Below, one piece after another: positions 8,660-56,531 of a DNA stretch of 64,000 nt. The notes under the pieces were generated by a model, which did not search any database, had not been told where the DNA came from, and saw only the letters and a program-made list of their open reading frames with translations. Both the position numbers and the translations under genes were made by a program. The first letter of the stretch is position 1. The number at the start of each line of letters is the position of its first letter. Source of the stretch: an uncultured Acidobacteriota bacterium (GTDB lineage: Bacteria > Acidobacteriota > UBA6911); NCBI GenBank assembly GCA_963843575.1, contig CAWJKZ010000021.1:158962-222961 (forward strand), read 5' to 3'.

Positions 8660-8690
8660 CCATCCCGAGTCCCGAAGCGCAACGGCAGAA

Positions 8691-8790: not shown

Positions 8791-8815
8791 TCGGCGTATT
8801 TCTGAATACGAGTAC

Positions 8816-9920: not shown

Positions 9921-10104
9921 AGAAGGGACTCCAGGTCGGTCGGCGCGGGGCCGGTGATGCCGTCGCAAGGATACCGTAAATAATGGTAACACACAGTCTC
10001 CGGGACGCAAAGAAACGCGCGGGACAAATGATTTGACGCCAATATTCCCGGGTGCTAATAATTTGTCGTTCTATCTTCCCGTATGATTTTCTCGGAGGTA
10101 CACC

Positions 10105-10367
10105 GTGAGCTATTGTCCCGAATGCGAGGCCGCCATCGACGAGGAGTTCGAAGACCTCGGCGAAGTGATCTCCTGCCCCGAATGCGGCGTAGAACTCGAG
10201 GTGATTTCGATCGATCCCGTCGAGTTCGACCTCGCTCCCGTAGACGACGAGGATGAGGACAGGACGATGACTATCGGTTCGACGAAAGCGACGAGGACGA
10301 CGAGGACGACGAGGACTGGGACGACGAAGATGACGAGGAAGATGAAGACGACGAGCGTGAGTATTGA
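10105..10367 (+). CDS. LysW-like zinc-ribbon protein with long acidic tail (one frameshift near 10260)
   Basis: CPEC...ISCPECGVELEVISIDPVEFDLAP; the corrected frame reads a D/E-rich tail ending EDDEREY-stop at 10367. Confidence 0.65.
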
Positions 10368-10458
10368 GGATGCGTCCATCATGACATCCACCTCCGGTTC
10401 CTTGCCCCGGTGCCGCTCCGTGGCCCCTGCTGCGTGCGCCTCACATGGAGGCCTTCAT

Positions 10459-11157
10459 TTGCCGCAGCACATAAGACTTCTGGTTTTTGACCTGGATTAC
10501 CTGGTTTTCGACTGCTCGTTGCTCAAGGTGAGCGCTCTCAGGCAGAGCCTTATTTCGTTCGCCGAAGCCATACCCCAGAGCACTCGCCTGCCGGACGAGG
10601 TGGATGCCGAGGAGGGATTTCTCCAGCACGGGTTCCGGTGGCTGCAGTTCCTGGAGATCGGGCTCGACGAGGAGCGGCTCGAGGAAGTGCGGCAGGCATA
10701 CCGGGTCCACGAGGATCGCTTGATCGAGGCGGGCGCCGGAAAGATCTACCCCGGGCTCCCTGAGTTTCTGGCCGGGTGCCGCCTGGACGACGTGCGACTC
10801 GCCCTCGGGGCCGACGCCAGCCGGGACTACCTGCTCTCGGTCAGCGACCGTTACGGCCTGCACGGCGTGTTCGATGTGGCGCTGTGCACCGAGGAGTACG
10901 GCGTCGGCAGGGCGCAGGAGATGCTGGAGGATATCATGTACCAGGCGGAGGTCAATCCCAGCGAGACCCTGGTGCTCGGCACACGGCCGAGCATGTTCGA
11001 GGCGGCGCACAGCCTGGACGTCGGCGCCGTCGGGTGCGGTTGGGGAATCCACCAGCGGGACGGGCTTAGGGAAGCGGACCTGCAGGCGCTCAGCATCGGC
11101 CAGCTGCCGGCCGCCATCCGGGAAGCGGACGACAGGGCGGAGCAGTACCTCGGGTGA
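10459..11157 (+). CDS. HAD-superfamily hydrolase
   Basis: LLVFDLDYL motif I variant, IYPGLPEFL, ETLVLGTRPSMFEAA, GCGWG; TTG start with GGAGG 8 nt upstream. Confidence 0.75.
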   Translation: MPQHIRLLVFDLDYLVFDCSLLKVSALRQSLISFAEAIPQSTRLPDEVDAEEGFLQHGFRWLQFLEIGLDEERLEEVRQAYRVHEDRLIEAGAGKIYPGLPEFLAGCRLDDVRLALGADASRDYLLSVSDRYGLHGVFDVALCTEEYGVGRAQEMLEDIMYQAEVNPSETLVLGTRPSMFEAAHSLDVGAVGCGWGIHQRDGLREADLQALSIGQLPAAIREADDRAEQYLG

Positions 11158-11199
11158 TCCCCGAGGTGAGTTCAGATCCCCGTTTCATGGTACATTTTG

Positions 11200-12035
11200 A
11201 TGATGACTCTGCAAGAAAAAGAACTGAAGCTGGAAACCACTCTCGCCGGCATGGGACGCGTCCTTGTCGCTTACAGCGGCGGGGTTGATAGCTCCTATCT
11301 GGCCTACAAGGCTCACCGGGTCCTCGGGGCCGACGCTCTGGCCGTGACGGCCGAGAGCCCGTCGGTGCCATCCCACCAGCGCCGCATGGCCATGCAGGTC
11401 GCCGGGCAGTTCGGGTTCCCGCACGAGATTGTCAATACGCGGAAGTGGAGCGCGAGGAGTACCGGAACAACCCGCCGAACCGCTGTTTCTTCTGCAAGGA
11501 CGAGTTGTATGCCGTGCTCGCCGGCGTGGCCTCGGAGCCGGGGATTTACCGCGATTCTCGACGGGCTCAACACCGACGACCTGGGCGACTACCGGCCGGG
11601 GCGCGACGCGGCGCGCGCGCACAATGTCCGCAGCCCACTGGTGGAGGCCGGGCTCAACAAGGCCGAGATCCGCGAGCTCTCCCGAAGGGCCGGGTTGCCC
11701 ACCGCGGACCAGCCGGCGTCGGCTTGTCTGTCTTCGCGGTTTCCCTTACGGCGTCAAGATCACGGAGGAGAAGCTGCGCAGGGTCGACCGCGGCGAAGAG
11801 GCGCTGCGCGAGATGGGATTCCGGATTTTCCGGGTGCGCCACCACGACGAGATGGTGCGGCTGGAGTTCGGGTCGGAGGATCTCGCCCGCGCCCTGAACG
11901 TGGATGTCGCCGCAGATCCTCACGCGGCTCTTCAAGGGCCTCGGCTACAAGTATGTCGCGCTGGATCTCGAAGGCTACCGGACAGGGTCGGCGAACGAGG
12001 TGCTGGTTAGCGAGATCCGCCAGTTTCCCGCCTGA
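11200..12035 (+). CDS. larE: LarE-family ATP-dependent sacrificial sulfur transferase (PP-loop), frameshifted
   Basis: VAYSGGVDS PP-loop, NPPNRCFFCKDELY, DGLNTDDLGDYRPG, SPLVEAGLNKAEIR, ACLSSRFPYG, RVRHHD. Confidence 0.85.
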
Positions 12036-12063
12036 TAAATCCGCCGTATAATCCCGCACATCA

Positions 12064-12171
12064 AAGTGGGTCCGGGCTTCAGCCCGGACGTCTTTTGATC
12101 TGATCTATGTGGCGACGGGCGCACGTTATAGCGACCGCAAACAGCGTCCGGGCTGAAGCCCGGACCCACTT
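12064..12171. repeat. REP-like inverted doublet
   Basis: AAGTGGGTCCGGGCTTCAGCCCGGACG (12064-12090) and its exact reverse complement (12145-12171); each unit holds a 9-bp hairpin. Confidence 0.85.
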
Positions 12172-12221
12172 GGGTTGGGCTAGGCTGAGCTACAAACGTC
12201 CGAGCCGCGCGAGGTCTGCTC

Positions 12222-13921
12222 ATGAGATCGCTTCCCCTGCGAATCGCCGTGTGGTTGCTCCTGTTCGGATCACTCCCCCTATGTCACGGTGCCTCGAAAA
12301 GCCCCGTCCGCGGCGTTCACGGCATGGTGGTCTGCACCGAGCCCCGGGCGGCCCGGGTGGGCCTGGACGTGCTCAAACGGGGCGGAAACGCGGTGGACGC
12401 GGCCGTCGCGGTAGGTTTTGCGCTTGCGGTGACCCACCCGTCGGCCGGCAACCTGGGCGGCGGCGGCTTCATGATGATCCGGGACGGCATCCGGCACGGT
12501 CGTCGCGCTCGACTACCGCGAGATGGCGCCGTCGGCGGCCTCTCGCGACATGTACCTGGATGCCTCCGGAAAGCCCGATCCCGCTGCCTCGACCGTCGGG
12601 TGGCGCGCTTCCGGCGTGCCCGGCACCGTGGCGGGGCTGGCCCTGGCGCTGGAGTGGCACGGGACCCTCAAGCTCGCGGACGTCGTCGCGCCCGCGGTTG
12701 CACTGGCGCGCGACGGCGTCGAGCTGAGTTGGTTCGAAAGCGAGTCGTTGCGCGGCGCAAGCCGGTTGCTGGAACGTTTTCCGGAAAGCCGGAGGGTCTA
12801 TCTGCGGTACGGCCGGCCCTATGAGGCCGGCGAGCGGTTCTGCCAGCCCGATCTGGCCGCCACCCTGGAGGCAATCGCCCGGAACGGCCCGAGGGAGTTC
12901 TACGACGGCCCCGTCGCCCGTCGCATCGCCGAGGAGATGAAGGCGAATGGAGGGCTGATCACGCAGGACGATCTCCGGGGGTACCGGGCCCTGGTGCGCC
13001 AGCCGATCGAGGGGACATACCGCGGCTGCCGGGTTTACTCGGTGCCTCCGCCAAGCTCGGGCGGGATCGTGCTGGTGGAGATGCTCAACGTGGTGGAAGC
13101 ATTTCCGCTCGAGCGTTACGGCTCCGGCTCGAGCCGCACCCTGCACCTGCTCGCCGAGACCATGAAGCTGGCATTCGCGGACCGGGCGGAGTTCCTGGGC
13201 GACGGCGATTTCGTGGACGTGCCCGCGGCCGGCCTGACGTCGAAAAGCTACGCCGCGGAGCGGCGCTCCAGGATCGACCCGTTCCTGGCGGCGGAAGCCG
13301 CGCGCACGGCACACGGCGCGCCGGCCCGCCATGAGAGCGAGCAGACCACCCACTTCTCGGTCGTCGACGAAAAAGGGAACGCCGTGTCCAACACCTACAC
13401 GCTCAACGGTGGTTACGGTTCGGGCGTGACGGTGCGCGGCACCGGCATCCTGATGAACAACGAGATGGACGATTTCAGCGCCCGGCCGGGGACGCCCAAC
13501 GCCTACGGCCTGGTGCACGGTGAGGCCAACGCCATAGCGCCGGCGAAGCGCCCTCTGAGCGCCATGACCCCGACAATCGTGACCAGGGACGGGGAGCTTT
13601 TCATGGTTCTCGGGAGCCCCGGTGGGCCGACCATCATCAACACGGTCTTCCAGGTGCTGCTGAACGTGATCGATTTCGGGATGACGCGTGCAGGAGGCAG
13701 TGGACGCGCCGAGGATCCACCACCAGTGGCTGCCCGAATCGCTTGCCCTGGAGAGGTTCGGATTTGCGGAGGACGTGACGCAGGCGCTGCGGGCGCGCGG
13801 CCACACGCTGCAGGTGCGGAATGCCATCGGGGATTGTCATGCGATCGTCGTGGACCCCAAGACCAGGGTGAGACTCGGGGCGGCGGACCCTCGCATGGAC
13901 GGCGTCGCCCTGGGCTACTGA
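12222..13921 (+). CDS. ggt: Gamma-glutamyltransferase (frameshifted)
   Basis: [36 protein letters not shown] (nucleophile Thr), [26 protein letters not shown]. Confidence 0.92.
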
Positions 13922-16556
13922 CCGGCCCAGTCCTCGAGCGTCTGCTGGATCACCTCTTTCACGTCCTCGATCCTGAACGGCTTGGCGAGGTAGCGGTTGG
14001 ACGTCTGCTCGAAAAACGACCGCGTCTCCGTGCTCACGGTGTCGCCGGTGACGAAGATGATGCGGCTGGCGAGCGACGGGCGCTCGCGCGTGATCCAGTC
14101 GAAAAGATCCCGCCCGCTCATCTGCGGCATCTTGAAGTCGGTCACCACCAGGTCGTATTCGTGCGCCTCGATCTTCTCCCGCGCGATCCTGCCGTTGCTG
14201 GCGGTGTCGACGTGCATCGGGTACATCTGGAAGACCTCGACGAAGAAGTCTAGTATGTACCTCTCGTCGTCCACCACGAGGATCCGCTTGCCGCGCACGA
14301 GGTTTTCGAACTGCAGTGCGCGGGGCGCCAGGTCCGCGGCGACGGCCGGTTCGTCCTGCAGGACGGAGTTGACGGGCAGCTCGATGACGAACGTCGAGCC
14401 TTCGCCGACGCGGCTGCGCGCGTATATGTTGCCGCCGTGCTCCTTGATGATGCCGTAGGAGAGGCTCAGACCGAGTCCCGTCCCCTTGCCCACCTCTTTG
14501 GTCGTGAAAAAGGGATCGAAGATCTTGGTGATGATCGACTCCGGGATGCCGGGTCCGTCGTCGACGATCTCGACCACGATGCGCTGGTTGGCCTGATCGG
14601 TGCGGGTGCGGATGATCAGCCGGCCGTTGCCGTGGGCTTCGAGCATCGCCTGCTCGGCATTGGTGAGGACATTGAGGAACACCTGCTGCAGCTGGTGGGC
14701 GTCGGCAATGGTCTTCGGCAGCCCACGATCGAGCTCCCGGCATATCTCGATGTTGTTGACGGCCAGCTCGTAATTGCGCAGCTCGACGGTGCGGTCCAGT
14801 ATCTCGTTGATGTCCGAGAGCGTGCGTTCCGGTTTCTGCTTGCGGGCGAACGACAGCAGGTTCTGCACGATCTTCTGGCAGCGGAGCGCCAGGTTGTTGA
14901 TCTTCAGGAGGCTCTCGCGCGCCCGCTCGTCGAGGTCGCCCCGCAGCTGCAGGAGCTGCGAGTAGCCCATGACGCCCGTGAGCGGGTTATTGAGTTCGTG
15001 GGCGATCCCCGAAATCAGTTCGCCGATGGCGGAGAGTTTTTCGGACTGGATGAGCTGCTGCTGGAGGAGCTTTTCGTTGCTGATGTCCTTCGCGACGTGG
15101 ATCGACCCGGCGAGGCGGTTGTTCTTGTCGTACCAGGGGCCGACGGAGATCTGGTAGGTTCCGTCCATCACGGGTAGCTCGACCTCCTCGACGATCAGCC
15201 CCTCGGCCTGCATCGAGTGGAGGTGCCGGCACGGGCTCAGGCTGGAGCCCGCCGGGTTGTAAAGCTCGGCGCAGTACTTGCCGATGACCTTCGGCGGCGT
15301 CGTCTTCAGCCGTCGCGCCAGCGCCAGATTCGCCCTCACGATCTTGCCGGTCATGTCGTGCACCGAGACGCAGTCCTGCATGGCGTCGAAGGTGGTCTCC
15401 CACTCCTTCTGGCTGCGGGATACGACCTGGAACAACCGGGCGTTCTCCAGGGCGATGGCGGCCTGGTGTGCGAGCGTCTCGGCCCGGAAGATCTCCTCGT
15501 CGGTGAAACTCCGCTCGCGCGAGTTGTCGCTGCAGACGAGGACCCCGATCGGCTGGTCCTTGGCGATCAGGGGGGCGAATATCGCGGACCGCCAGCCCAG
15601 CCTGTCGCTGATCCGGCGCTCCATGCGGTGCCCCTGCGGGCATCTCCTCCACTGCGATCACGCGCTTTTCCACGAGGGCGGTTATCGCAACGGAGGACTC
15701 GTCAAGGCTGACTTCGACCTGCCGGATGTCGAGGTTATCGGTCTGCGTGGATGCGGCGCCGACCAGCCGGGGCTGCCGGTCGTCGACCAGGAAGAGGTGG
15801 CACTGGCTGGTCTTGACCAGGCGTTTCCCCTCCACCACGATCCTATGAATGATGTCTTCCAGGTCGAAGCTCTGGGAGATGATCTTGTTGACCTCCTGGA
15901 GGGCGATCAGGTCCTCGGAGAGCTTGTCCGGCCTGCTCCCGCAGCCGCACGTTGACGATCGCCACGCCGAGGATCTCGGTCAGGGTGAGGATCAGGTCCT
16001 GCTGTGACTCGCTGAGCGTCTTGGGCTTGCGGCTGGCCAGCCCGAGGGTGCCGAGCAGGCGGCTGCCTGACTCGGACGGGATACAGCGCAAAAAACTGCA
16101 GCCCCTCCTGGCGCAACGCTTCGGAGACGCGTTCGGGGCAGCCCGGGTTCGGCGACCCGTCGACGACGACGGCCCGGTTGTCCGCCAGTTGCCGGTGCAC
16201 CGGCCCTTCCTGCTCCTGGTCGAGTTCCAGCGCCGACACCGTGTCCTTGCGGAAACCGCGGTAGACGGCCGTCGGGGACAGGTTCTCGTCGCCGGAGACG
16301 ATCCGGAACGTGCCCGCCTCCATGCCCAGCAGGCTCATCAAGTCGTCCAGCGCGGTCCCAAGCACGGTCGTGAGGTCCAGCGACCGGTTGACCATCGATG
16401 AAATGTTGCGCAGCACCGAAAGCTCACGCTGTCTGAACCGCGGCCGGCTTGCGCACCGGCACGGTAGCCAGAAGGAAGAAGATGCTCGGCAGCAGCCACA
16501 GGGCGTGAAGATCGGAGCAGGGGAATGAGGGCGGTAACGCCAACCGCAACTAGCAT
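13915..16556 (-). CDS. Hybrid histidine kinase with GAF/GAF/PAS input and receiver domain (frameshifted 5' half)
   Basis: [56 protein letters not shown]...DFKM...KP; GAF-like [13 protein letters not shown]. Confidence 0.85.
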
Positions 16557-37774: not shown

Positions 37775-38980
37775 GTGATGGGGCGGTTTCTGAGGGGCCT
37801 CGCGGGGCGGAGCTTTGTCACCTCGCAGTTGCTGGCTGTCTTCGGGTTTTCGCTGCTGCTCGGGGTCGGCCCGGCAACCCAGGCGTGGCAGGACACGCAG
37901 TCCACGCAGCGCCGCTCGGAAGCCATCACGCGGGAGGAGTTCGCTCACTTCGTCAACGACTACTCCGAAGACGACGGGTTCTTCAGGTCGGACAATTTCG
38001 TCTCCAACGAGACCTCGTACCTGCACATCCTCGACAAGCTGCACTCCCTCCAGGCGCATGGCGGCGCCTACATCGGGGTCGGGCCGGAGCAGAATTTCAC
38101 CTACATCGCCAAAATCCGGCCCCGCATCGCCTTCATTGTCGACATCCGCCGGCAGGCCGTGATCCAGCACCTGATGTTCAAGGCCCTCTTCGCCCTGTCG
38201 GACACCCGGGCCGAGTTTCTCTCCTACCTGTTCAGCAAGCCGCTAAACGGGTCGACTGCCTCTTCGGGCGCCGCCGGCATCCGGGACACCCTTGAGTACT
38301 TCGCCAACACGCCGACGGATCCGGCGGCTTTTGCGCGCAACTTGGCCCTCATCCGCCGGACCATACGGGACCAATTCGGAGTTCCACTCTCGGACCGGGA
38401 CCAGACTTCCCTCGAGTACGTGTATTCCGCCTTTCGCGACGAGAACCTCGGAATCCAGTACCGGTCGGGCGGCCCGAACTGGTCGGGTAGCCCCTGGGGC
38501 GACTTCCCGACGCTCCGGGAACTGATCCTGGAACCGGATCTGACGGGGCGTCTGGGAAACTTTCTCGCCACCCAGGACGACTTCGATTTCGTGCGCCAGA
38601 TGCAGCAGCAAAACCGGATCGTCCCAATCGTCGGCGATTTTGCCGGGACCAAGGCGCTCGCGTCGGTCGCCGACTACCTGAAGCGCAGCGGTTACTCCGT
38701 CACAGCCTTCTACACCTCCAACGTCGAGCAATACCTCTTTGCCAACGGCGTGTTTGGGGCCTTCGAACAGAACGTCAAGAGGCTGCCGATCACCGAGCAC
38801 AGTGTCTTCATCCGCGCCTTCCCCAACATGCGCGACCCTCACCCGGCCCGGATCGGGAACCACCGGCTGACGACCCTGCTCCAGAAGATCGACGTTTTTG
38901 TCGACGACTACGAGCGGGGCGTCTACCAGGATTACTGGACGCTCGTCACCACCCACTTCATCGCCGCCGAGGCCCGCTAG
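37775..38980 (+). CDS. Conserved exported hypothetical protein, possible SAM-binding-like fold
   Basis: Intact 401-aa ORF with signal peptide; DNFVSNETSY, GGAYIGVGPEQNFTYIA, FYTSNVEQYLF. Confidence 0.7.
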   Translation: MMGRFLRGLAGRSFVTSQLLAVFGFSLLLGVGPATQAWQDTQSTQRRSEAITREEFAHFVNDYSEDDGFFRSDNFVSNETSYLHILDKLHSLQAHGGAYIGVGPEQNFTYIAKIRPRIAFIVDIRRQAVIQHLMFKALFALSDTRAEFLSYLFSKPLNGSTASSGAAGIRDTLEYFANTPTDPAAFARNLALIRRTIRDQFGVPLSDRDQTSLEYVYSAFRDENLGIQYRSGGPNWSGSPWGDFPTLRELILEPDLTGRLGNFLATQDDFDFVRQMQQQNRIVPIVGDFAGTKALASVADYLKRSGYSVTAFYTSNVEQYLFANGVFGAFEQNVKRLPITEHSVFIRAFPNMRDPHPARIGNHRLTTLLQKIDVFVDDYERGVYQDYWTLVTTHFIAAEAR

Positions 38981-39127: not shown

Positions 39128-40609
39128 ATGAGCGAGCTTCCCTTGGCCCTGCAGCAGCGGCTCAGATCATGCCGGACACTGCCGAGCATCCCGGCGGTTG
39201 TCTTGGAGGTGCTGGACCTCTGCCAGCGCGACGATGTGGCCATACAGGAGGTGGCCAGAGTGCTGGCGCGCGACCCGGCGCTCGCCGCGAAGGTGCTGAC
39301 GGTGGCGAATTCCGCCTGGTACGGGTTGCGTTCGCAGGTCACGACGCTGGACCGGGCGCTCGCCTTGCTCGGCATAAACGCGACGCTCAGCCTGGCGCTG
39401 AGCTTCTCGTTCGTGCGCGGACTGCGCGGGTCAGGGTGGGTGAGGTTTGATCATCAGGCCTACTGGCGCAGGTCGGCCATCGCAGCCACCGCCGCCAGGG
39501 TGATCGGCCGATACGAGTGCGACGCTACCCCGGATGAGCTCTTCCTTGCCGGTCTGCTGCAGGACATCGGCATGCTGGCGCTGAACGAAGCCATCCCGGA
39601 ACTCTATGACCCGATCGTTGCCGAGGCGAAGGGCGACCATCAAAAGCTGATGGTGCTCGAACGCGAGAAACTCGGGGCCGACCACGCAGCGAGCGGCGAG
39701 TGGCTGCTTCGGAACTGGAACCTGCCCGAGAAGCTGCAAAGGGCCGTTGCCGGCAGCCATCAGGCGGAGCCGGGTGCCGAGGCGGACTACTTCGCCCTCA
39801 GCGTCGCGCTGGCGGGCAGGGTGGCGGAGATCTGGACCCACCCCGACAACACCGCGGCCGCCGACGCGCGCGAGGCTTCCATACGCCTGCTCGACATCCC
39901 AGCCGGGCGGTTCGACGAGATGCTGGGCGAGATCGCCCGGGCCCTGCCGGAGGTCACCGCAAACCTCGACATCGACATCGGGGGCGAGGAAGAGATCACC
40001 CGGCTGCTGGATCGGGCGCGCGAGGCGCTTGTGTCCCTGGTCATGCAGGCACAGCAGCAGGTACGCGAAATCCGCGAGCAGTCGCAGAACGACGGGCTCA
40101 CCGGCCTGTGCAACCGCGCCCACCTCGATGAGGTCATGGCGGCCCGGTTTCTGGAGGCGCAGCGGATGGCCCAGCCGTTGAGCGTCGTCTTCATTGACCT
40201 CGACCACTTCAAGAGCATCAACGACGCCTACGGACACCAGGCGGGAGACCAGGTGCTGATCTCCGTCGCCGATGTCCTCCGGAATTGTCTTCGGTCCCGC
40301 GACGTGGTCGGCCGCTACGGCGGCGAGGAGTTCGTCGGCGTGCTCCCGAACACCCCGGCCGCGGCGGCCACGCTCGTGGCCGAACGCCTGCGTGCAGCGG
40401 TGGCGGCGCGGCGCCATCGGATCGGGGAAGGGCTGGACGTGGAGGTGACGATATCCGTGGGCTGCGCGACCGGCTCGCCCGAGAAGCCATTTCCCTCCAG
40501 CAAAGAATTGCTCGAGGCCGCAGATCGCTGCCTTTACGCCGCCAAGGGGCTTGGGCGCAACCGCGTGGTGGTGCTCAAAGATCTCTCCACGGCCGTGAAC
40601 CAGGACTGA
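39128..40609 (+). CDS. HDOD-GGDEF diguanylate cyclase
   Basis: LPSIP, DPALAAKVLTVANSA, AGLLQDIG, WNLP; DGLTGLCNR, DLDHFKSINDAYGH, RSRD I-site, GGEEF. Confidence 0.92.
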   Translation: MSELPLALQQRLRSCRTLPSIPAVVLEVLDLCQRDDVAIQEVARVLARDPALAAKVLTVANSAWYGLRSQVTTLDRALALLGINATLSLALSFSFVRGLRGSGWVRFDHQAYWRRSAIAATAARVIGRYECDATPDELFLAGLLQDIGMLALNEAIPELYDPIVAEAKGDHQKLMVLEREKLGADHAASGEWLLRNWNLPEKLQRAVAGSHQAEPGAEADYFALSVALAGRVAEIWTHPDNTAAADAREASIRLLDIPAGRFDEMLGEIARALPEVTANLDIDIGGEEEITRLLDRAREALVSLVMQAQQQVREIREQSQNDGLTGLCNRAHLDEVMAARFLEAQRMAQPLSVVFIDLDHFKSINDAYGHQAGDQVLISVADVLRNCLRSRDVVGRYGGEEFVGVLPNTPAAAATLVAERLRAAVAARRHRIGEGLDVEVTISVGCATGSPEKPFPSSKELLEAADRCLYAAKGLGRNRVVVLKDLSTAVNQD

Positions 40610-45184: not shown

Positions 45185-47569
45185 CTACTTGCGCATTTCG
45201 ACCACCGTGGCGCCGCCGCCCCCTTTTTCGGGTGCGGCAAGGGCGAAACGCTCGACCTGGGGATGGCCTTTGAGCAGCTGCGCGATCGCTCGGCGCAGGA
45301 TCCCCTTGCCATGGCCGTGGATGATGCGGACAGTGTCCGCCCCGGCGACAAACGCCTCGTCGAGAAACTTGTCGACCCGGTCGGTCGCCTCGTCGGCCGT
45401 CATGCCGATGACGTTGGCCTCGCGCTCAAACTCCTCGTCGATGTTGACGTCGGGCCCCGAGGCGTGAAATCCGGGGCGCGGCGCTGCGGTGCCGGCCGCC
45501 GGTTGAAGCGGGACGATTTCTTCCGGCCTGAGGCGGAATTTCAACGAACCCACCAGTACGGTGCAGGTGTCGTCCTGCGTCGAATCGACCACCCCTTCCT
45601 TGCCGAGCGACGGAATCCGCACCCGGGTCCCCTCGCGGAGGTCCGCGACGTGAAAGGTGGGCGCCGCGGGCACGCCCGCGCCGGTGTCGGCGCCGGGCCC
45701 CTGTTTCAGCCGCTCTGCGGTGCGGCGCAGTTCGGCTGAGCGGCTGGCTGCGGCCTTGCTGAGGCGCTGGGCTTCGACCCGGTCCTTCAGGTCGCGGACG
45801 AGACGCTCGCTTTGCGCGGTGAAGCCGGCGATCACGCGGGCGAGTTCCTGCTCGAATTCGCGGTGCCTTTCGGCCTCGCGGCGGGCGAACTCCAGATCGA
45901 GCCGGGCGTATTCCCGCGCCGCCGCCTCACGCTCCTGCTCCAGGGCGGCGCGCAACTGTTCCTGGTCGTCGACGGAGGCCTTCAGCTTCCTGAGGTAGGC
46001 GCCGGCCTCGGTGTGCGCGGGATCGATACGGGCCTTGGCCTCGTCGAGGATGACCGGCGGGATGTTCATGCGGCGGGCGATCTCGAGCCCTGCCGATGCG
46101 CCGGCCACCCCGACCATCAGCCTGTAGGTCGGCCGCAGCGTGCGCTCGTCGAACTCCACCGACGCGTTCAGCACGCCCTCGGCCTGCGCCGCCCAGATTT
46201 TGAGACCCGAGTAGTGGGTGGTGGCGACCGTGGTGGCCCCGGCACGGCGGAAGAAATCGACGATGGCCACGGCCAGCGCCGCCCCCTCGTCCGGGTCGGT
46301 CCCGGTCCCGACCTCGTCCAGCAGCAGCAGCGCCGGCGGGGCGACGCGCTCGGCCATGTCGGCGATGTTGCGCATGTGCGCCGTGAAGGTCGACAGGTTG
46401 GCCGCGATCGACTGCTGGTCGCCGATGTCGGCAAACACCTGGTCGAAAACCGGGAGCACCGCCTCGCAGGCGGGCACGTGCAGACCCATTTGCGCCATCA
46501 GGACGGCAAGCCCCACCGTCTTGAGCACCACGGTCTTTCCCCCGGCATTCGGCCCGCTGATGACGACGACCTGGTGTGACTCGTCGAGGTCCAGCGTGAT
46601 GGGGACCGCGGTCGCCCCGGAGACCCGCAGGGCGCGCTCGAGCAGAACATGGCGGACATCGGCGAGGCGCAGCGCCGTGCCTTGGGCCAGCCGCGGCCGC
46701 ACGCAGCGGAACTCGGCGGAAAGTCTCCCTTTTGCCTGGGAGAAGTCCACCAGCGCGACGGCGTCCCGGACAGCGGCAATCTCGGCGGCGTGCAGCCGGA
46801 GGGCCTCGCTGATGGAGAAGAGAATGCGGGCAATCTCCGCCTCCTCCTGCTCGCGCAGCCGCACGAGCTCGTTGTTCTGCTCGATGGCCGCAAGGGGTTC
46901 GACGAAAGTCGTCTGCCCGCTGGAAGACAGGCCGTGCACCACACCCGGGACCTGGTGGCGCGCGTCGGTGCGGATCGGGATGACGAAGCGGCCGTTACGA
47001 AACGTGACGAGATCGTCCTGGACTGCCCGCGTCTGCGCCTTGAGGATGGAGTCCAGGCTTCGAAAGATGCGCGTGCGGGCTTCCCCGAGCTCGCGCCGTA
47101 TCGCCCTGAGCTCGGGGCTCGCGTTCTCGTCGATCTCTCCCCCGGGAAGGATCTTTCCCCGGATCGAGCCGAGCAGCCGCCGCAGATCGGGGATGCTGCC
47201 GGAGAGACGGGACAGCTCGGGGTAGAGTTCGAGCGCCTCGGCGCCCCGGAACTGCTCGCGCAGGCCGAGCCCGACCGAGACCAGCCGCTCCAGCTGGAGT
47301 ATCTGCAGCGGTTCGAGGCTCGTGCCTTCGATCTGCAGCTTGGCCAGGGCCGCTTCCGGGTCCTCGATGCCGGCGAACCCGAATCGTTCGCCGGAGTTCA
47401 GGTAGCGCGCGCACTCGGTGGTGAGCTCCTGCCCCAGCTCGATTTCAGCCCGATCGGACGACGGCCGCTGCGCCGCGACGAGCCGGCGGCCGAGCGGCGT
47501 CTGGGCGTGCCCGGCCAGCAAATCGAGGAGAGAGTGCAGCTCGAGCGTGGAAAAGGTGCGTTGGTCCAT
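45185..47569 (-). CDS. mutS2: Endonuclease MutS2
   Basis: GPNAGGKTVVLK, DIGDQQSI, LSTF, LDEVGTGTDP.EG, TTHY, Smr domain IIHGHGKG.LR. Confidence 0.95.
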   Translation of the reverse strand: MDQRTFSTLELHSLLDLLAGHAQTPLGRRLVAAQRPSSDRAEIELGQELTTECARYLNSGERFGFAGIEDPEAALAKLQIEGTSLEPLQILQLERLVSVGLGLREQFRGAEALELYPELSRLSGSIPDLRRLLGSIRGKILPGGEIDENASPELRAIRRELGEARTRIFRSLDSILKAQTRAVQDDLVTFRNGRFVIPIRTDARHQVPGVVHGLSSSGQTTFVEPLAAIEQNNELVRLREQEEAEIARILFSISEALRLHAAEIAAVRDAVALVDFSQAKGRLSAEFRCVRPRLAQGTALRLADVRHVLLERALRVSGATAVPITLDLDESHQVVVISGPNAGGKTVVLKTVGLAVLMAQMGLHVPACEAVLPVFDQVFADIGDQQSIAANLSTFTAHMRNIADMAERVAPPALLLLDEVGTGTDPDEGAALAVAIVDFFRRAGATTVATTHYSGLKIWAAQAEGVLNASVEFDERTLRPTYRLMVGVAGASAGLEIARRMNIPPVILDEAKARIDPAHTEAGAYLRKLKASVDDQEQLRAALEQEREAAAREYARLDLEFARREAERHREFEQELARVIAGFTAQSERLVRDLKDRVEAQRLSKAAASRSAELRRTAERLKQGPGADTGAGVPAAPTFHVADLREGTRVRIPSLGKEGVVDSTQDDTCTVLVGSLKFRLRPEEIVPLQPAAGTAAPRPGFHASGPDVNIDEEFEREANVIGMTADEATDRVDKFLDEAFVAGADTVRIIHGHGKGILRRAIAQLLKGHPQVERFALAAPEKGGGGATVVEMRK

Positions 47570-47609
47570 GCGGAACCTTACTTAGAAACGGGGCGGGCGG
47601 TCAAGTGTG

Positions 47610-47692
47610 TGGAGTGCAGCGCCTCGGCGGCCTCGGCGCCGCTTTCTCGGTGCGTCCTACGGCCGAATTACCCGGCGCCTCGGCGCCACACC
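47610..47692. repeat. GGAGTGC-family REP-like element, upstream of mutS2
   Basis: TGGAGTGCAGCGCCTCGGCGGCCTCGGCGCCGCTTT...CCCGGCGCCTCGGCGCCACACC; a further inverted unit at 47724-47748. Confidence 0.75.
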
Positions 47693-47813
47693 GAACCTCG
47701 CCGTGCCCTTACTGCTCGACGCGCGGCGCCGTCGAGCCGCCGCGCTCCTGGCCTGCCTTGCTCCTTGTGCAAGAAAGCGTTAGTCTGTGACAACAAAGTG
47801 TGGAGCCGCCGAT

Positions 47814-49187
47814 ATGCCTGCGAGCAGGAAAATCGTGATCATGGGGGCCGCGGGGAGGGATTTTCACAACTTCAACCTCTGTTTCCGCAATAACCCGGCG
47901 TACCGTGTCGAAGCATTCACCGCTTTTCAGATCCCGAACATCTCGGGCCGCACCTATCCGCCGGGACTCGCCGGCGAGGGGTATCCGGAGGGGATCCCGA
48001 TCTATCCCGAAGCCGATCTCCCGGGGCTGATCCGGGACAAGGGGATCCAGGAGGTGGTCTTCGCCTACAGCGACGTCTCGTACGCCGACCTCATGCACAA
48101 GGCGTCGCTGGTCAACGCCGCCGGCGCGGATTTCCGGCTCTTGGGCGCGGCGGGCACGATGCTCCGGGCGGGGAAGCCGGTGGTGGCGGTCTGCGCCGTC
48201 CGGACGGGATGCGGGAAGAGCCAGACGTCGCGGCGCGTTGCGGAGCTGCTGCGTGGACGCGGCAAATCGGTGGTGGTCGTGCGCCACCCCATGCCGTACG
48301 GCGACCTGAACGCGCAACGCTGCCAGCGTTACGAGGCGCTCGCGGACCTGGACCGGCACCGCTGCACGATCGAGGAGCGCGAAGAATACGAGTCCCACAT
48401 CCTGCAGGGAAACATCCTCTACGCGGGGGTGGACTACGAGGAAATCCTGCGCAGCGCCGAAAAGGAGGCCGACATCATTCTCTGGGACGGCGGCAACAAC
48501 GACCTGCCGTTCTTCCGCCCGGACCTGCACATCGTGCTGGTGGACCCGCACCGACCCGGTCACGAGCTGCGCTACTACCCGGGGGAGACCAACCTGCGGA
48601 TGGCGGATGTGGTGATCGTGAGCAAGTCGGGGAGCGCGACGGCGGCGGGTGTGGAGGAGGTGACCGCGAACGCTAGAGGCGCGAACCCGCGGGCCCTGTT
48701 GATCCGCGCCGACTCGATCCTGCACGTCCAGGACGAGACGGCTATTCGCGGCAGGCGAGTGCTGGTGGTCGAGGACGGCCCGACCCTGACGCACGGCGAG
48801 ATGACTTACGGCGCGGCGCACCTGGCGGCGCGGCAGTTCGGAGCGGCCGAGATCGTTGACCCGCGGCCCTACGCGGTGCGCTCGATGCGTGAGACCTTCG
48901 CTCGGTATCCCCACCTGGTCGACGTGCTCCCGGCCATGGGATATGGCGACGAGCAGGTCCGGGACCTCCAGGAGTCCATCGACGCCGTCCCGTGCGACCT
49001 CGTGCTGGTCGGCACCCCGCTCGACCTGGGGCGGCTGATCGAGACCCGACATCCGATGCTGCGCGTGACCTACAGCCTCGACGCGGTTGCGTCGGAAGCG
49101 CTGGACCGGGTGCTGGGACAGTTCCTATCCAGTCCGTTGGAGACAAGAGGCGACCATGCGGAAAAAGGACTTTCTCTCCATCCGTGA
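47814..49187 (+). CDS. P-loop ATP-dependent ligase of the cPGS-like/COG2403 family; probable arginine synthetase (ArcE)
   Basis: IMGAAGRDFHNFN, AFQIPNI.GR.YP..LAG..YP.GIPI, AVRTGCGKS, RHPMPYG, TIEEREEYE, WDGGNND, EDGPT.THG, PAMGY; first gene of an OTC/carbamate kinase operon. Confidence 0.8.
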   Translation: MPASRKIVIMGAAGRDFHNFNLCFRNNPAYRVEAFTAFQIPNISGRTYPPGLAGEGYPEGIPIYPEADLPGLIRDKGIQEVVFAYSDVSYADLMHKASLVNAAGADFRLLGAAGTMLRAGKPVVAVCAVRTGCGKSQTSRRVAELLRGRGKSVVVVRHPMPYGDLNAQRCQRYEALADLDRHRCTIEEREEYESHILQGNILYAGVDYEEILRSAEKEADIILWDGGNNDLPFFRPDLHIVLVDPHRPGHELRYYPGETNLRMADVVIVSKSGSATAAGVEEVTANARGANPRALLIRADSILHVQDETAIRGRRVLVVEDGPTLTHGEMTYGAAHLAARQFGAAEIVDPRPYAVRSMRETFARYPHLVDVLPAMGYGDEQVRDLQESIDAVPCDLVLVGTPLDLGRLIETRHPMLRVTYSLDAVASEALDRVLGQFLSSPLETRGDHAEKGLSLHP

Positions 49188-50073
49188 TCAGTCCACGGAC
49201 GAGCTGCGCGACACGCTCATCAACGCCTTTGCGGTCAAATCGGATCCGCTGAAGTACTCGGATGCGCTCAGGGGGAAGGCTCTGGCCATGATTTTCGAGA
49301 AGCCTTCCCTGCGGACTCGGGTGACCTTCGATGTCGGCATACACCAGTTGGGCGGCTTTTCCGTCTACCTCTCGCCCGGCGAGATCAACCTGGGCAAGCG
49401 CGAACCGGTGGGCGACGTGGCCCGCAACCTCGAGCGCATGGTGCAGGGGATCATGATCCGCACGTTCAGCCACCGGATCGTGGAGGAAATGGCGGCGTGC
49501 GCGTCGGTCCCTGTGATCAACGGCCTCACCGACTTCAGCCACCCCTGCCAGGCGGTGGCCGACTACATGACCATGATCGAGTGCAAGGGGGAACTGAGCG
49601 GCCTGAAGCTGGCCTATCTCGGGGACGGCAACAACGTGGCCAACTCGCTGATGTTCGGCGCTGCCCTGCTGGGTGTGCACATCGTCGTCGCCGCCCCGCG
49701 CGGCTACGAGCCGAGGACAGAGGTGCTCGAGTGGGCGCGCGCGCACGCACCGGCCTCGGGGAGCAGGATCGAGGTCACGGACGATCCCGAACAAGCCGCC
49801 GCCGGCGCCGACGTGCTCTACACGGACGTCTGGGCGAGCATGGGCCAGGAGGACGAGGCGGCGGAGCGGCGGCGGAGCTTTCAGCCATACCAGGTCTCCG
49901 AGCGCCTGTTCGAGCTGGCCAGGCCCGACGCGATCTTCATGCACTGCCTCCCCGCTCATCGGGACGAAGAAGTCAGCGCGGGGGTGATCGACTCGCCCCG
50001 ATCCGTCGTCTTCCAGCAGGCGGAAAACCGGCTCCACGCGCAGAAGGCGATCATGCTGGGCGTCATGGGTTGA
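49156..50073 (+). CDS. argF: Ornithine carbamoyltransferase
   Basis: FEKPSLRTR, IRT, NGLTDFSHPCQ, GDGNNV, DVWASMGQE, MHCLP, QAENRLH. Confidence 0.93.
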   Translation: MRKKDFLSIRDQSTDELRDTLINAFAVKSDPLKYSDALRGKALAMIFEKPSLRTRVTFDVGIHQLGGFSVYLSPGEINLGKREPVGDVARNLERMVQGIMIRTFSHRIVEEMAACASVPVINGLTDFSHPCQAVADYMTMIECKGELSGLKLAYLGDGNNVANSLMFGAALLGVHIVVAAPRGYEPRTEVLEWARAHAPASGSRIEVTDDPEQAAAGADVLYTDVWASMGQEDEAAERRRSFQPYQVSERLFELARPDAIFMHCLPAHRDEEVSAGVIDSPRSVVFQQAENRLHAQKAIMLGVMG

Positions 50074-50082
50074 GGTGAATCC

Positions 50083-51045
50083 GTGGCTAGATCCGCGCTG
50101 GTCGCAGTAGGCGGAAATTCGCTCGTCCGTGCGGGAGAGCAGGGGGCGGTCCGTGAGCAGGTTGCCAACGCGCGCCGCATCAGCCGTGCGATCGCCGCGC
50201 TCCTGCGGGAAGGGCTCGACGTGGTCGTCACGCACGGCAACGGGCCGCAGGTGGGGGCCGCACTGCTCCGCTCGGAAAGAGCCTCCGGCCAGGTGTACGA
50301 ACAGGGCCTCGACGTGTGCGTCGCCGCCACCCAGGGCGAGATAGGCTACATCCTTCAGCAGGCGCTCGGGTACGAAATCCGCCGCCAGGGGATCGACAGG
50401 CCGGTGACCACCATCCTGACCCAGGTCGTGGTGGGCGTGGACGACCCCGCCTTCCTGCACCCCACGAAACCCGTCGGGCCCTTTTACTCGCGCACCGCGG
50501 CCGAGGAAAAGGCGCGCCGGCTGGGGTGGATCATGGTCGAGGACGCCGCCCGGGGCTACCGGCGCGTGGTCCCCTCGCCGCGCCCCCTGGAGATCGTCGA
50601 AGAGGACGTGATCCGCAGGATGCTCTCAATGGGGATGCTGGTGATCGCGCTGGGCGGGGGAGGTATCCCGGTGGTGCGCGAAGAGGGCGCGCTCCGCGGG
50701 GTCGACGCCGTGATCGACAAGGACCGTGCCTCCCTGCTGCTCGGCTCGCGCCTGCCGGTCGATCTCCTCGTCTTCGCCACCGACGCCGACCGCGTCTACC
50801 TCGACTACCGGAAGCCCGGCCAGCGGCCGCTGACCCGCGTGTTTGCGCGGCAGATGCGCGCCTACCTGGCCGCCGGCCAGTTCCCGCCCGGGAACATGGG
50901 GCCCAAGATCGAAGCGGCGCTCGAATTCCTGGCGCTCGGGGGGAAGGAAGCCATCGTCGCCTCCCACGAGCACCTCGTGGCCGCCGTCCACGGCGAGGCC
51001 GGCACCCGGATCCTGCCCGACAACTCCGAGGAGCGCAATCCATGA
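50083..51045 (+). CDS. arcC: Carbamate kinase
   Basis: VAVGGNSL, THGNGPQVG, ATQGEIGY, DPAF..PTKPVGPFY, RRVVPSP, GGGGIPV, VIDKD, MGPKIEAA. Confidence 0.95.
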   Translation: MARSALVAVGGNSLVRAGEQGAVREQVANARRISRAIAALLREGLDVVVTHGNGPQVGAALLRSERASGQVYEQGLDVCVAATQGEIGYILQQALGYEIRRQGIDRPVTTILTQVVVGVDDPAFLHPTKPVGPFYSRTAAEEKARRLGWIMVEDAARGYRRVVPSPRPLEIVEEDVIRRMLSMGMLVIALGGGGIPVVREEGALRGVDAVIDKDRASLLLGSRLPVDLLVFATDADRVYLDYRKPGQRPLTRVFARQMRAYLAAGQFPPGNMGPKIEAALEFLALGGKEAIVASHEHLVAAVHGEAGTRILPDNSEERNP

Positions 51046-51956
51046 AGCTCCGTCACGTCATTCAGTCTCAACAGTTCACCGTACCCCTCCTGATGGAGCT
51101 CTTCGACCGCACCCGCGCCATGGAGCGCGTCGTGCGCCGGGGCGGGACGCAGGATTACCAGAACAAAATCATGGCGACCCTGTTCTACCAACCCTCGACG
51201 CGCACGCGCTTCTCGTTCGAAGCCGCGATGTACCGCCTGGGGGGAAAAGTGTTTTCCACCGAGCAGGCCCGCTACTTCTCCTCGGAGGTCGAGGGAGAGC
51301 AGCTGGAAGACACGATCCGCACGATCTCCGGCTACTCCGATGTCATCGTGATCCGCCACTCTGAGGTGGGGGGAGCGGCGCGCGCGGCGGCTGTGTCACG
51401 GGTGCCGGTGATCAACGCCGGCGACGCCAACGGCGGGCAGCACCCCACGCAGGCCCTGCTGGACCTTTACACGATATTCCGCGAACGCCGCACGCTCGAC
51501 GGACTCAGCATCGCCATCATCGGGGACCTCGAACGCGGCCGCACCGCCCGCTCCCTGGCCTACCTGTTGAGCAAATTCGACCGAGTGAAGATCTGGTTCG
51601 TAAGCCCGCCCGAGCTTCAGATGGCGCGCGACATCCTGGACTACCTCGAGGAAAACGACGTGTGGTACGGGCTCGAACCCGACATGGACCGCGTGCTCGG
51701 GCACGTCGACGTCGTCTACCTGACCCAGATCCGCCCGGCCCGCCTCAAGGAGCAGCAGGGGGCGCTCAAGTACACGATCGATGCCTCGGTACTTCGTTGT
51801 CTGCGGCCCGACGCCCTGATCCTGCACCCCCTCCCGCGGACCGCGGAACTGGACAAGGCTGTCGACGAAGACCCCCGCGCGTGCTACTTCCGGCAGGCGG
51901 CCAACGGCCTGTTCGTGCGGATGGCGCTGCTGACAATGGTGCTCGAGGACGCCTGA
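51042..51956 (+). CDS. Aspartate carbamoyltransferase-like transcarbamylase with altered amino-acid-binding residues
   Basis: [40 protein letters not shown]...RMALL; SSEVEGE and TQIRPAR where ATCases have SS..KGE and TRIQ.ER. Confidence 0.85.
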
Positions 51957-52011
51957 GGCTTCCGGCCAACGGCCCCCTCCCAGCGCACCCGGTGTTGGAG
52001 AGGAGAATGCC

Positions 52012-53232
52012 ATGGAAGAGGAACTCAAGGCTGCAAAGCCTGCGACCACTGCGGACGCCCTCATCGACCTCGAAAACGAGTACGGCGCACATAATTACAA
52101 CCCGCTGGACGTCGTCGTGCACCGGGCGTCGGGTGTCTGGGTGTACGACGTCGAGGGGAAGCGTTACCTCGACTGCCTGGCCGCCTATTCCGCCGTGAAC
52201 CAGGGACACTGCCATCCGGCCATCCTGCACGCGGCCGAGGAGCAGATGCGCCTCGTGACCCTGACCTCGCGCGCCTTCCGCAACGACCAGCTTCCGCTGC
52301 TGTGCCGGGACCTGCACGAACTCACCGGCATGGAGATGGCGTTGCCCATGAACTCCGGGGCGGAGGCGGTCGAAACGGCGCTGAAGGCGGCGCGCAAGTG
52401 GGGCTATACGTGCAAAGGGATCCCTCCGGGGAAGGCGGAGATCGTCGTCTGCGCCAACAACTTTCACGGCCGCACGATTTCGCTCGTGAGTTTTTCCACC
52501 GACGAACAGTACCGGCGCGGCTTCGAACCGTTCACCCCCGGTTTCAGGACGGTGCCGTACGGAGACAGCGACGCACTCCGCCGCGCACTGACTCCCAACA
52601 CCTGTGCCTTCCTGGTGGAGCCCATCCAGGGGGAGGCGGGAGTCGTCATCCCGCCGGACGGTTACCTCGAGGCGTGCTCCAGGCTGTGCAGGGAAAACGA
52701 CGTGCTGTTCGTGGCCGACGAGATCCAATCGGGGCTGGGGCGCGCCGGAAAGCTCTTCGCCTATTTGTACGAGGACGTCGAGCCCGACGTCCTGATCATA
52801 GGGAAAGCGCTCGCCGGCGGGTTCTACCCCGTCTCGGCCGTGCTGGCCTCCAAGGAGGTGCTCGGCGTCTTCGGGCCCGGCGACCACGGCAGCACGTTCG
52901 GCGGCAACCCCCTCGCCTGCGCCATCGCCCGGGCCGCGCTCCGCGTACTGCAGGAGGAGAAGCTCGTCGAGCGCTCCGCCGAACACGGCCGGTACTTCCT
53001 CGGGCTCCTGCGGACGCTGCGCTCCGCCGACATCGTCGAGGTAAGGGGCCGCGGCCTCTGGATCGGCCTCGAGCTCAAGCGTGGAGCACGCGGCTGCTGC
53101 GAGATCCTGAAGGAGCGGGGGATCCTCTGCAAGGAAACCCACGAACGCGTGATCCGGGTCGCGCCCCCCCTCGTGATCACGCGTGAGGAGATCGACTGGG
53201 CCTTCGAAAGGTTCCGCTCCGTCCTCGAATAG
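52012..53232 (+). CDS. rocD: Ornithine--oxo-acid transaminase
   Basis: [76 protein letters not shown]. Confidence 0.95.
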
Positions 53233-53274: not shown

Positions 53275-53310
53275 ACACTAGCCCATGTCTGCGGGCTTTC
53301 GCGCTATTCG

Positions 53311-53437
53311 CGTGCGTATGTGTTCGTGGCGTCGCTCGCGTTTCTGCTGGATCGAGCGTTGGAGAAAAAACTGCAATCGGCCGGCTCGGACATCTCATCG
53401 CGGGAGGGAGGCTTGGCAGTCGCTGCGGACAGTCCGG
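53311..53437 (+). mobile_element. Remnant of IS1634-family transposase C-terminus
   Basis: RAYVFVASLAFLLDRALEKKLQSAGSDISS then, after a frameshift, EAWQSLRTVR; resembles the IS1634 AHVFVAALAFLL.RALEKKL motif from memory; no start or DDE core. Confidence 0.6.
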
Positions 53438-55501: not shown

Positions 55502-55784
55502 GGTTCCCCCTTTCCGGCGCCCGGCGGCGCCCGGATCATCGAAGCCTGCGCTTTCCGTGATTTTTCACTGCTACTGGATTTGACCCTGCACGCCCGCCGA
55601 AGTTCCGGAGCGGGGATCATCGGGATTCATGGAGCATTTAACGACCGCACGAGCACGTCAGCCGAGACGAAGTCGATCGTGGGGCGGCCTCTTCACCCGG
55701 GCAGGGGTTGCCGCAGCCTTTCCCGCGCCGGTGTGCGATGATAAGCTTGAATGGGGTCCCCCTAAGCCAAACCGGAGAACAGTG

Positions 55785-56531
55785 ATGAGCAACCATGACG
55801 GAACGCAGGGCGAGATTCTCGCGCGTTTGCGCAAGCTCGAGGCACAGAACCGGCTCATCAAGAGGATCGGCCTCCTGGCGTTCCTCTCGGCCGGGGCGTT
55901 GTTCTGGATGGGGCAGGCCAGGACAGCGCGCAACGTCGAAGCGAGGAGGTTTACCCTGAAAGATGTCAAGGGGAAGCGGAGGGCGGAACTGGCGATAGAG
56001 CTCGGCCGCCCGGTACTGCTCTTCTACGACGAGATGGAGAGGGCGTCCGTGTCGATTGGGGTGGAGGAGGACGGTCCCGGCCTGACCCTGTACGACCCGG
56101 CCGGCCGCCAGTCGATGGTGCTGAGCGCGGCCGCAAACGGCCCCGTGTTGAGCATGTTCTCCCGCTCGGGGGTGAAACGGCTGAACATGAGCGTGGCGGC
56201 GCAGGGCCCTGTCATCGGACTGCTCGGGACCGCAGGGGAGGCCAGGGCGGCGTTCGGCGCCTCGGGTTCCGACAATACCTTTCTGCACCTGTTTTCCGAC
56301 AAGGAGCACGGCGGCGTGCAGCTTTCGGCCGGCGCGGACCGCGCGGTCGTGCGCATCTTCGACGGCGCCGACAAGCCCAGGGCCGTTTTGGGAATGCTGG
56401 AGAAGGAAAACACCCCGGGGCTGGTTCTCAACGACGGCGCGGGGGCCGCGCGGGTGATGCTGCTGTTGTTTCCCCGTGGTCCCGGGCTCGAGTTCCGCAG
56501 CGACAAAGACGTCGTCTGGCGGGCCCCCTGA
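55785..56531 (+). CDS. Membrane-anchored hypothetical protein with about 22-aa beta repeats
   Basis: Coiled coil ILARLRKLEAQNR, one TM segment, then repeats L.L(Y/F)D..G..R..L.....GP. Confidence 0.65.
   Translation: MSNHDGTQGEILARLRKLEAQNRLIKRIGLLAFLSAGALFWMGQARTARNVEARRFTLKDVKGKRRAELAIELGRPVLLFYDEMERASVSIGVEEDGPGLTLYDPAGRQSMVLSAAANGPVLSMFSRSGVKRLNMSVAAQGPVIGLLGTAGEARAAFGASGSDNTFLHLFSDKEHGGVQLSAGADRAVVRIFDGADKPRAVLGMLEKENTPGLVLNDGAGAARVMLLLFPRGPGLEFRSDKDVVWRAP

Follow-up and report, generated by a model that had tools for sequence, protein, structure and literature searches.

We analyzed a 64,000-nt stretch of the genome of an uncultured Acidobacteriota bacterium (GTDB UBA6911; contig CAWJKZ010000021.1 of assembly GCA_963843575.1, positions 158,962 to 222,961; hereafter "the window") and found, on its plus strand, five packed genes that combine a homolog of the arginine synthetase ArcE with ornithine transcarbamylase (OTC), carbamate kinase (CK), a second transcarbamylase resembling aspartate transcarbamoylase (ATCase), and ornithine aminotransferase (OAT). 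The arcE-like gene (47814–49187) encodes a P-loop protein of 457 amino acids (aa), the same length as its nearest homolog (88% identical), and carries a GGAG about 9 nt 5' of its ATG at 47814. The protein matched no Pfam or NCBIfam model, and its assignment is by homology, predicted fold, and context. It is followed by OTC (argF/arcB, 305 aa, 49156–50073), matching TIGR00658 at 397 bits (cut-off 281) and NF001986 at 423 bits, also over the cut-off, and by CK (arcC, 320 aa, 50083–51045), matching NF009007 at 332 bits (cut-off 266) and scoring slightly below the cut-off of TIGR00746 (351.5 against 358 bits). The ATCase-like protein, which we call ATC2 (304 aa, 51042–51956), matched TIGR00670 at 284 bits (cut-off 237), and the last gene (52012–53232) encodes a rocD-type OAT of 406 aa (TIGR01885, 519 bits, cut-off 378; PF00202, 414 bits). 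In gene order, the spacings are a 32-bp overlap, a 9-bp gap, a 4-bp overlap, and a 55-bp gap, exactly as given in the initial annotation of the sequence, and the five genes are one real operon. When open reading frames (ORFs) in the window, whose G+C content is 64–69%, were screened by third-position GC (GC3), the genes for the ArcE-like protein, OTC, CK, and OAT had values of 0.85–0.89. ATC2 was absent from that list, as the ORF finder had merged it into a longer in-frame ORF (50316–51956), and its gene call rests on the Pfam and NCBIfam matches.

The reference for the first gene is TK2200 of Thermococcus kodakarensis, the ArcE that reversibly converts arginine, ADP, and Pi to citrulline, NH3, and ATP (RHEA:79573; Michimori et al. 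2024, PMC11032458). According to the same study, ArcE is annotated as a hypothetical protein or putative GTPase, bears little resemblance to cyclic 2,3-diphosphoglycerate synthase, and has, in the AlphaFold model of TK2200, a resemblance to LpxK (4EHY). The gene often lies near arcB or arcC, its distribution is complementary to that of arginine deiminase, and its carriers include Thermococcales, Desulfurococcales, Thermoproteales, and many bacterial phyla, Acidobacteria among them (PMC11032458). The protein from the window belongs to a family of more than 8000 homolog clusters labeled "predicted GTPase" or "cyclic 2,3-diphosphoglycerate synthase." It is 45–63% identical to the homologs at 80 named loci, 47% identical to a Thermoproteota member, and 45–57% identical to Desulfurococcales members. 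The named homologs come from Desulfurococcales, Thermoproteota, Thermoplasmata, Bathyarchaeota, Chloroflexota, Nitrospirota, Planctomycetota, Brocadia, Caldisericia, Acidobacteriota, Holophagae, and others, and in a quick maximum likelihood tree they form a single family with archaea and bacteria interleaved. The Walker A motif is TGCGKS, and all 77 columns invariant among 36 diverse members are kept in the protein, which was itself one of the aligned rows. Its AlphaFold2 model (pLDDT 91.9) contains the LpxK-like P-loop NTPase core published for TK2200: in Foldseek, LpxK entries came after the top match, among them 4EHY (E = 1.3e-7, TMt 0.59) and four others. CK and/or OTC adjoin the arcE homolog at 14 of the 80 diverse named loci. 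Within the genome, which is 88% complete, the arcE-like gene is single copy and arcA is absent, in line with the complementary occurrence reported for the two. The protein fits every published trait of ArcE, and its orthology to TK2200 appears well supported by the published description and by these indirect features.

It is very improbable that the protein is instead a cyclic 2,3-diphosphoglycerate (cDPG) synthetase (cDPGS) or a GTPase, as labeled in the databases, and that its place beside OTC and CK is a coincidence. Some homologs are so named by their sources, and the top structural match of the model is indeed cDPGS of Methanothermus fervidus (8ORU, E = 1e-16; see also 8ORK), with which it shares a similar multidomain P-loop architecture. 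However, this fold match comes with 13% identity (13–14% over the comparisons made) and a TM of 0.44, and a single-sequence comparison with 8ORU gave no more than 19.7 bits (E = 0.004) across 183 residues; no close full-length similarity to characterized cDPGS was found. The family profile scored cDPGS at 56–77 bits, compared with 400–930 bits inside the ArcE-like family. The genomic context differs as well, the linkage to CK and OTC recurring across phyla, and cDPG is a solute of hyperthermophilic methanogens. The protein is thus not a cDPG synthetase but a member of a remotely related sister family, and the earlier assignment of the P-loop gene as ArcE-type rather than cDPGS is borne out by the low score to cDPGS, the LpxK-like fold, and the OTC and CK linkage.

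We searched the remainder of the assembly (6.68 Mb in 27 contigs) for other genes of arginine and pyrimidine metabolism. The arginase family (PF00491) had no match in the whole assembly, and a search of the same sequences with PF02274 returned a single short DDAH-like gene on contig C13 and no full-length arcA. The C13 gene (C13:819744-820600) encodes about 290 aa with a GGGGPTC catalytic-Cys motif and has its N-terminal ~75 residues in another frame. It scored 72 bits against the dimethylargininase model (cut-off 340), 57 against arcA (cut-off 489), and 27 against arginine dihydrolase (cut-off 450), and on these scores it is not a canonical arginine deiminase. The absence of arcA and arginase noted earlier for the window therefore extends to the whole assembly, and the check for arcA elsewhere in the genome that had been proposed came back with this one gene. 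By tblastn and hidden Markov model (HMM) search, the operon carries the only OTC of the genome, a state shared with eight other cassette- or arcE-bearing genomes of the same family; CK is likewise single copy. The genes argG, argH, and carB and an argC-argB-argD-argJ cluster are all located away from the operon, with carB present in one intact and one fragmented copy (C27:64828-67952). An OAT paralog on contig C14, 39% identical to that of the operon, lies inside the argC-argB-argD-argJ cluster and is likely ArgD. Also on C14, a canonical pyrB (318 bits) forms a pyrR-pyrB-pyrC cluster flanked by divergent pyrK-pyrD-pyrF. The assembly contains indel-type frame breaks: in several conserved genes the coding sequence is spread across two or three frames (argH, C14:690059-691374; the second carB; pyrC, C14:825095-826672; and the DDAH-like gene on C13), which suggests long-read-type assembly errors and not true pseudogenes. 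No break of this kind affects the five-gene operon.

The fourth gene is the unusual member of the operon. The best PDB match of ATC2 is Arabidopsis PYRB (6YPO; 314 bits, 53% identical). Its identity to the housekeeping PyrB of C14 is only 32%, and it scored only 25 bits on the model of the transcarbamylase YgeW. We aligned it with 119 homologs of at least 73% identity and with the ATCases of Escherichia coli, Arabidopsis, Methanocaldococcus jannaschii, and the genome itself (E. coli numbering throughout). In its family HMM score and its carbamoyl phosphate (CP) site, ATC2 agrees with the ATCases, and it shares fold and length with the ATC II type (E. coli PyrB, Arabidopsis PYRB 6YPO, M. jannaschii 2RGW). 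The CP-site residues Ser52, Arg54, Thr55, Arg56, Ser80, Arg105, His134, Gln137, Pro266, and Leu267 are invariant in the 119 homologs and Thr53 is found in 116, so that STRTR, Arg105, HPTQ, and HPLP are all kept; Arg167 is invariant as well. The residues expected for aspartate, in contrast, are not retained. Lys84 is present in none of the 119 homologs, being replaced by Glu (82), Gln (17), Ala (12), Asp (3), Ser (2), or one of three other residues seen once each, and Gln231 is likewise missing from all, with Arg in 100, Leu in 13, His in 5, and Tyr in 1. Arg229 has become Gln in 80 sequences and remains Arg in 37. ATC2 of the window has Glu84, Gln229, and Arg231 at these positions, whereas Lys84, Arg229, and Gln231 are retained by all 14 canonical ATCases examined, nine of them type-II enzymes of the same phylum. 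An Arg at either 229 or 231 occurs in nearly all ATC2 members, and Arg165 has been gained in 95. The family further has nearly invariant residues of its own, Glu82 (120/121), Asp164 (116/121; Glu in the window protein), Tyr39, Gly111, and Arg114. On this pattern, ATC2 is an extra paralog, probably derived from a type-II ATCase, that would bind CP but probably not aspartate, and the gained Glu82 and Asp164 may hint at a substrate with a cationic or neutral side chain.

The gene context agrees with a role outside pyrimidine synthesis. Neither pyrI nor pyrC was found beside ATC2, the gene is not the sole copy of its kind, and all five genomes of the phylum with ATC2 also have a canonical pyrB. 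Because Lys84 and Gln231 are absent throughout the 119 homologs and a canonical pyrR-pyrB-pyrC cluster is present elsewhere in the genome, ATC2 is probably not the pyrimidine enzyme of the cell.

Two sequences related to ATC2 deserve separate mention. Protein P0306, from a 2253-bp ENA contig, joins the N-terminal ~221 CK residues in frame to a complete ATC2 homolog; it was left out of the 119 counted above and is the only family member seen with Lys84. We did not use this fusion as Rosetta-stone evidence: the last ~100 CK residues are missing, and the arrangement is probably a deletion or chimera. At another locus (L194; G211:C8:56000-71500, genes at 3626-10922), an ATCase-like protein 54% identical to ATC2 lies in a series of genes for a PALP enzyme, an M20 peptidase, CK, the ATCase-like protein, and an amidohydrolase, followed by an Fe-S protein. 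The cluster resembles the ygeX-ygeY-yqeA-hyuA uric-acid cluster, with the ATCase-like protein at the position of ygeW. This protein has SSLTR in place of STRTR (Arg54 to Leu), together with Phe80, Pro84, and Glu231, and from these substitutions it may be inactive or of different chemistry. YgeW itself, paired with the CK YqeA, acts in reductive uric-acid breakdown by phosphorolysing a 2-ureido amino acid (bioRxiv 10.1101/2025.05.19.654654). It thus has in common with ATC2 the partnership of a transcarbamylase with CK, and the 54%-identical relative occupies its position, but it is OTC-like, with a knotted fold, and does not derive from an ATCase, and the arginine cassette contains no uric-acid genes.

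The association of the five genes extends well beyond the window. The closest relative (88% identity) has the order mutS2 / arcE-OTC-CK-ATC2, and a relative at 72% has mutS2 / arcE-OTC-OAT. A scan of metagenomes with ATC2 as the query identified 80 loci at 71–76% identity. CK lay directly upstream of ATC2 in all 57 loci with enough flanking sequence, and OAT directly downstream in 51 of the 54 loci for which this could be decided. ArcE adjoined the cassette in 30 of 34 loci, counting those in which the four-gene core was complete and both flanks were long enough. The commonest order was OTC-CK-ATC2-OAT-ArcE, and the order of the window, ArcE-OTC-CK-ATC2-OAT, was found in seven loci. At the four cassette loci without an adjacent arcE, the neighbors were unrelated genes and did not include arginine deiminase, and we rejected the idea that the latter lies beside them. 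The same five genes are present in a metagenome-assembled genome of Ignavibacteriaceae, and they are a conserved cassette across phyla. Within the phylum of the window the distribution of ATC2 is patchy, with orthologs of at least 72% identity in 5 of 301 sampled genomes, while of 21 genomes belonging to the same family, 14 have ArcE, with the gene order kept. The initial annotation had described ATC2 as a fifth enzyme added to the route; its presence is confirmed, but an incidental addition does not fit a gene that is constant between CK and OAT and has a remodeled second-substrate site.

Comparisons with relatives also point to a possible origin of the cassette. Two arcE-less relatives (L189, G312:C42; L190, G300:C35) have the order PBP1 / mutS2 / argF with argF alone, and because the lone argF occupies the same position, the cassette appears to have been built around a resident argF, with arcE inserted 5' and CK-ATC2-OAT 3' of it. 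Alternatively, these relatives have lost arcE, CK, ATC2, and OAT. In another family of the same phylum we found a canonical pyrB-pyrI-arcC-argF cluster (L210; G017:C2:2350000-2369900, 10719-14181, minus strand), whose pyrB is the only ATCase there and from which arcE lies 16–18 kb away in three genomes. This arrangement suggests that ATC2 arose from a PyrB already beside CK, and the L210 cluster is a possible precursor. We drew no inference about CK as the sole CP source in that family, since most of its genomes carry carB and all carry arcE.

Taken together, the operon probably encodes a bacterial arginine synthetase route whose main function would be the breakdown of arginine with a gain of ATP, a reading to which we assign a probability of about 0.7. 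The individual steps are proposed from family membership and gene context. ArcE would convert arginine, ADP, and Pi to citrulline, NH3, and ATP; OTC would phosphorolyse citrulline to ornithine and CP; CK would transfer the phosphate of CP to ADP, giving ATP and carbamate; and OAT would remove ornithine as glutamate semialdehyde/pyrroline-5-carboxylate. Phosphorolysis of citrulline by OTC is thermodynamically unfavorable, and given this equilibrium and the lack of a gene for the ornithine antiporter (arcD) in the operon, the removal of ornithine by OAT would be expected to pull the step. ATC2 would act as a CP-using transferase alongside CK, probably with something other than aspartate as its acceptor or ureido donor, and could either provide a second CP-yielding phosphorolysis feeding CK or form a branch that consumes arginine-derived CP. 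The presence of argG and argH elsewhere in the genome argues for a degradative role of ArcE, following the reasoning of PMC11032458. Several observations weigh against breakdown as the main function. No gene for an arginine transporter or regulator was found in or beside the operon, and the DDAH-like enzyme from C13 could act on arginine or citrulline. At 88% completeness, the assembly could have missed an arcA or a further argF. As the only OTC in the genome, the cassette enzyme must serve both directions, and it would also run anabolically when arginine is scarce. Finally, ArcE catalyzes a near-equilibrium reaction, which in T. kodakarensis sustains the synthesis of arginine in vivo (PMC11032458). 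Of the route initially proposed, the core stands, namely ArcE, OTC, and CK with RocD as the next step for ornithine, whereas a purely catabolic operon is at odds with a sole OTC at the ancestral argF locus and a reversible ArcE.

The sole OTC and an ArcE that is reversible and can make arginine in vivo also speak for a mainly anabolic or bidirectional cassette, a low-cost, ammonia-dependent route to arginine, which we nevertheless consider clearly unlikely. In such a route, CP would come from CK, at the expense of NH3, CO2, and one ATP, and ornithine would come from glutamate semialdehyde through OAT; OTC would join the two to citrulline, and ArcE would produce arginine from citrulline, NH3, and ATP, while the ATCase-like enzyme would take CP to a second product. 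The position of the only OTC at the ancestral argF site would suit this, as would the two CP-using transferases flanking CK and the pyrB-pyrI-arcC-argF cluster of the related family. The route would be redundant, however, with argG, argH, the two copies of carB, and argCBDJ in the genome; the equilibrium of CK favors ATP formation, and rocD-type OATs are typically catabolic. In T. kodakarensis, the supply of CP changed little when arcC was disrupted (PMC13260591), and the complementary distribution reported for ArcE and arginine deiminase is a further point against it. For ATC2, we tentatively propose that its clade is a carbamoyltransferase class of new substrate specificity and a regular member of the five-gene ArcE cassette, a combination we rate at somewhat under an even chance with either of two outputs: together with CK, a second ATP-yielding carbamoyl group drawn from a ureido compound other than citrulline or carbamoyl-aspartate, or the carbamoylation of a non-aspartate acceptor with arginine-derived CP. 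A competing but unlikely explanation is that ATC2 has remained an aspartate carbamoyltransferase, its site rearranged, and feeds arginine-derived CP to pyrimidines. The TIGR00670 score above the cut-off, the identity to the plant enzyme, the intact CP site and Arg167, and the Arg at 229 or 231 with the gained Arg165 could all be read in this way; a supply of CP from ArcE and OTC to pyrimidines has been shown in T. kodakarensis (PMC13260591), and canonical pyrBI stands beside arcC-argF in the related family. Against it are the loss of two residues that every canonical ATCase examined retains, the gain of acidic residues at 82 and 164, the lack of adjoining pyrI and pyrC, and the canonical pyrB in every ATC2-holding genome of the phylum, accompanied here by pyrR and pyrC.

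The closest known system is the arginine synthetase pathway of T. kodakarensis (ArcE, TK2200; ArcB, TK0871; ArcC, TK2158; Michimori et al. 2024, PMC11032458; 2026, PMC13260591). The operon resembles it in having a P-loop protein labeled hypothetical or GTPase, of low cDPGS similarity and with an LpxK-like core (in the window protein, as modeled), in the linkage of OTC and CK, in the absence of arginine deiminase, and in an expected yield of two ATP per arginine. It differs in that the genes form one operon while those of T. kodakarensis are scattered, in its host, a mesophilic-type high-GC bacterium with carbamoyl phosphate synthetase, argG, and argH, in the OTC doubling as the only biosynthetic one, and in two further constant members, the rocD-type OAT and the ATCase-like enzyme. 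With the arcABC(D) arginine deiminase pathway of Pseudomonas aeruginosa and Halobacterium salinarum, it shares the operon organization and the use of OTC and CK to turn citrulline into ornithine, ATP, CO2, and NH3. Unlike that pathway, however, it includes neither ArcA nor the ArcD antiporter, its first step would presumably form ATP rather than be hydrolytic, and ornithine would be metabolized by OAT rather than exchanged.

The surroundings of the operon gave few clues to its regulation. Upstream lies the divergent mutS2 (45185–47569, opposite strand), and the intergenic region between it and arcE (47570–47813; 244 nt), which should hold the leader and promoter, matched neither the sigma-70 consensus nor any Rfam family. 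Compared across the arcE-first loci, this leader is kept only with the 88%-identical relative, and with no Rfam match and no conservation past this nearest relative we dropped the idea of a conserved leader peptide or RNA. A palindrome, TTATTCAATCGAATA, is common to two metagenome loci (L113 and L147) about 200 nt 5' of arcE and may be an ArgR-type operator; nothing comparable was seen in the leader of the window. Downstream of rocD, two weak hairpins on the plus strand (53300–53316 and 53325–53340) possibly mark the end of the operon, although terminator-like matches were not in clear excess (6 found vs. 3.4 ± 1.8 in shuffled sequences), and a quinone oxidoreductase gene starts at 53630, about 400 bp past rocD. 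Elsewhere in the window, and unrelated to the operon, are a DUF7790 protein of 401 aa (37775–38980) and a 300-aa ORF with coding-type GC3 and no Pfam or NCBIfam match (55629–56531). A diguanylate cyclase of HDOD-GGDEF architecture (39128–40609) is kept in synteny with the 88% relative (L015).

The ArcE pathway, the spread of arcE among bacteria, and its linkage to arcB and arcC have already been published (Michimori et al. 2024, PMC11032458). In the literature searched, the papers since 2024 on this enzyme are two from the Atomi laboratory, a third from there that mentions it, and a modeling paper. In this arginine synthetase literature, covered at the level of titles and abstracts and in part as full text, neither a bacterial cassette of five genes nor its altered ATCase-like member was described. 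What is new at the locus is thus a conserved five-gene form of a pathway already known, and its interest lies mostly in ATC2. The ArcE reaction has been known only since 2024 and is curated for one archaeal protein (RHEA:79573), while databases still label the bacterial homologs "GTPase" or "cDPG synthase"; because of such labels, the capacity for arginine fermentation is under-called in bacteria of soil, sediment, and digesters. The locus shows a compact and widespread bacterial cassette that adds to the pathway the removal of ornithine by OAT and a further CP enzyme. Its sole OTC raises the testable question of one enzyme shared between the synthesis and the breakdown of arginine. If ATC2 indeed has a new substrate, it would extend the short list of transcarbamylase specificities and the energy yield or the outputs of the pathway.

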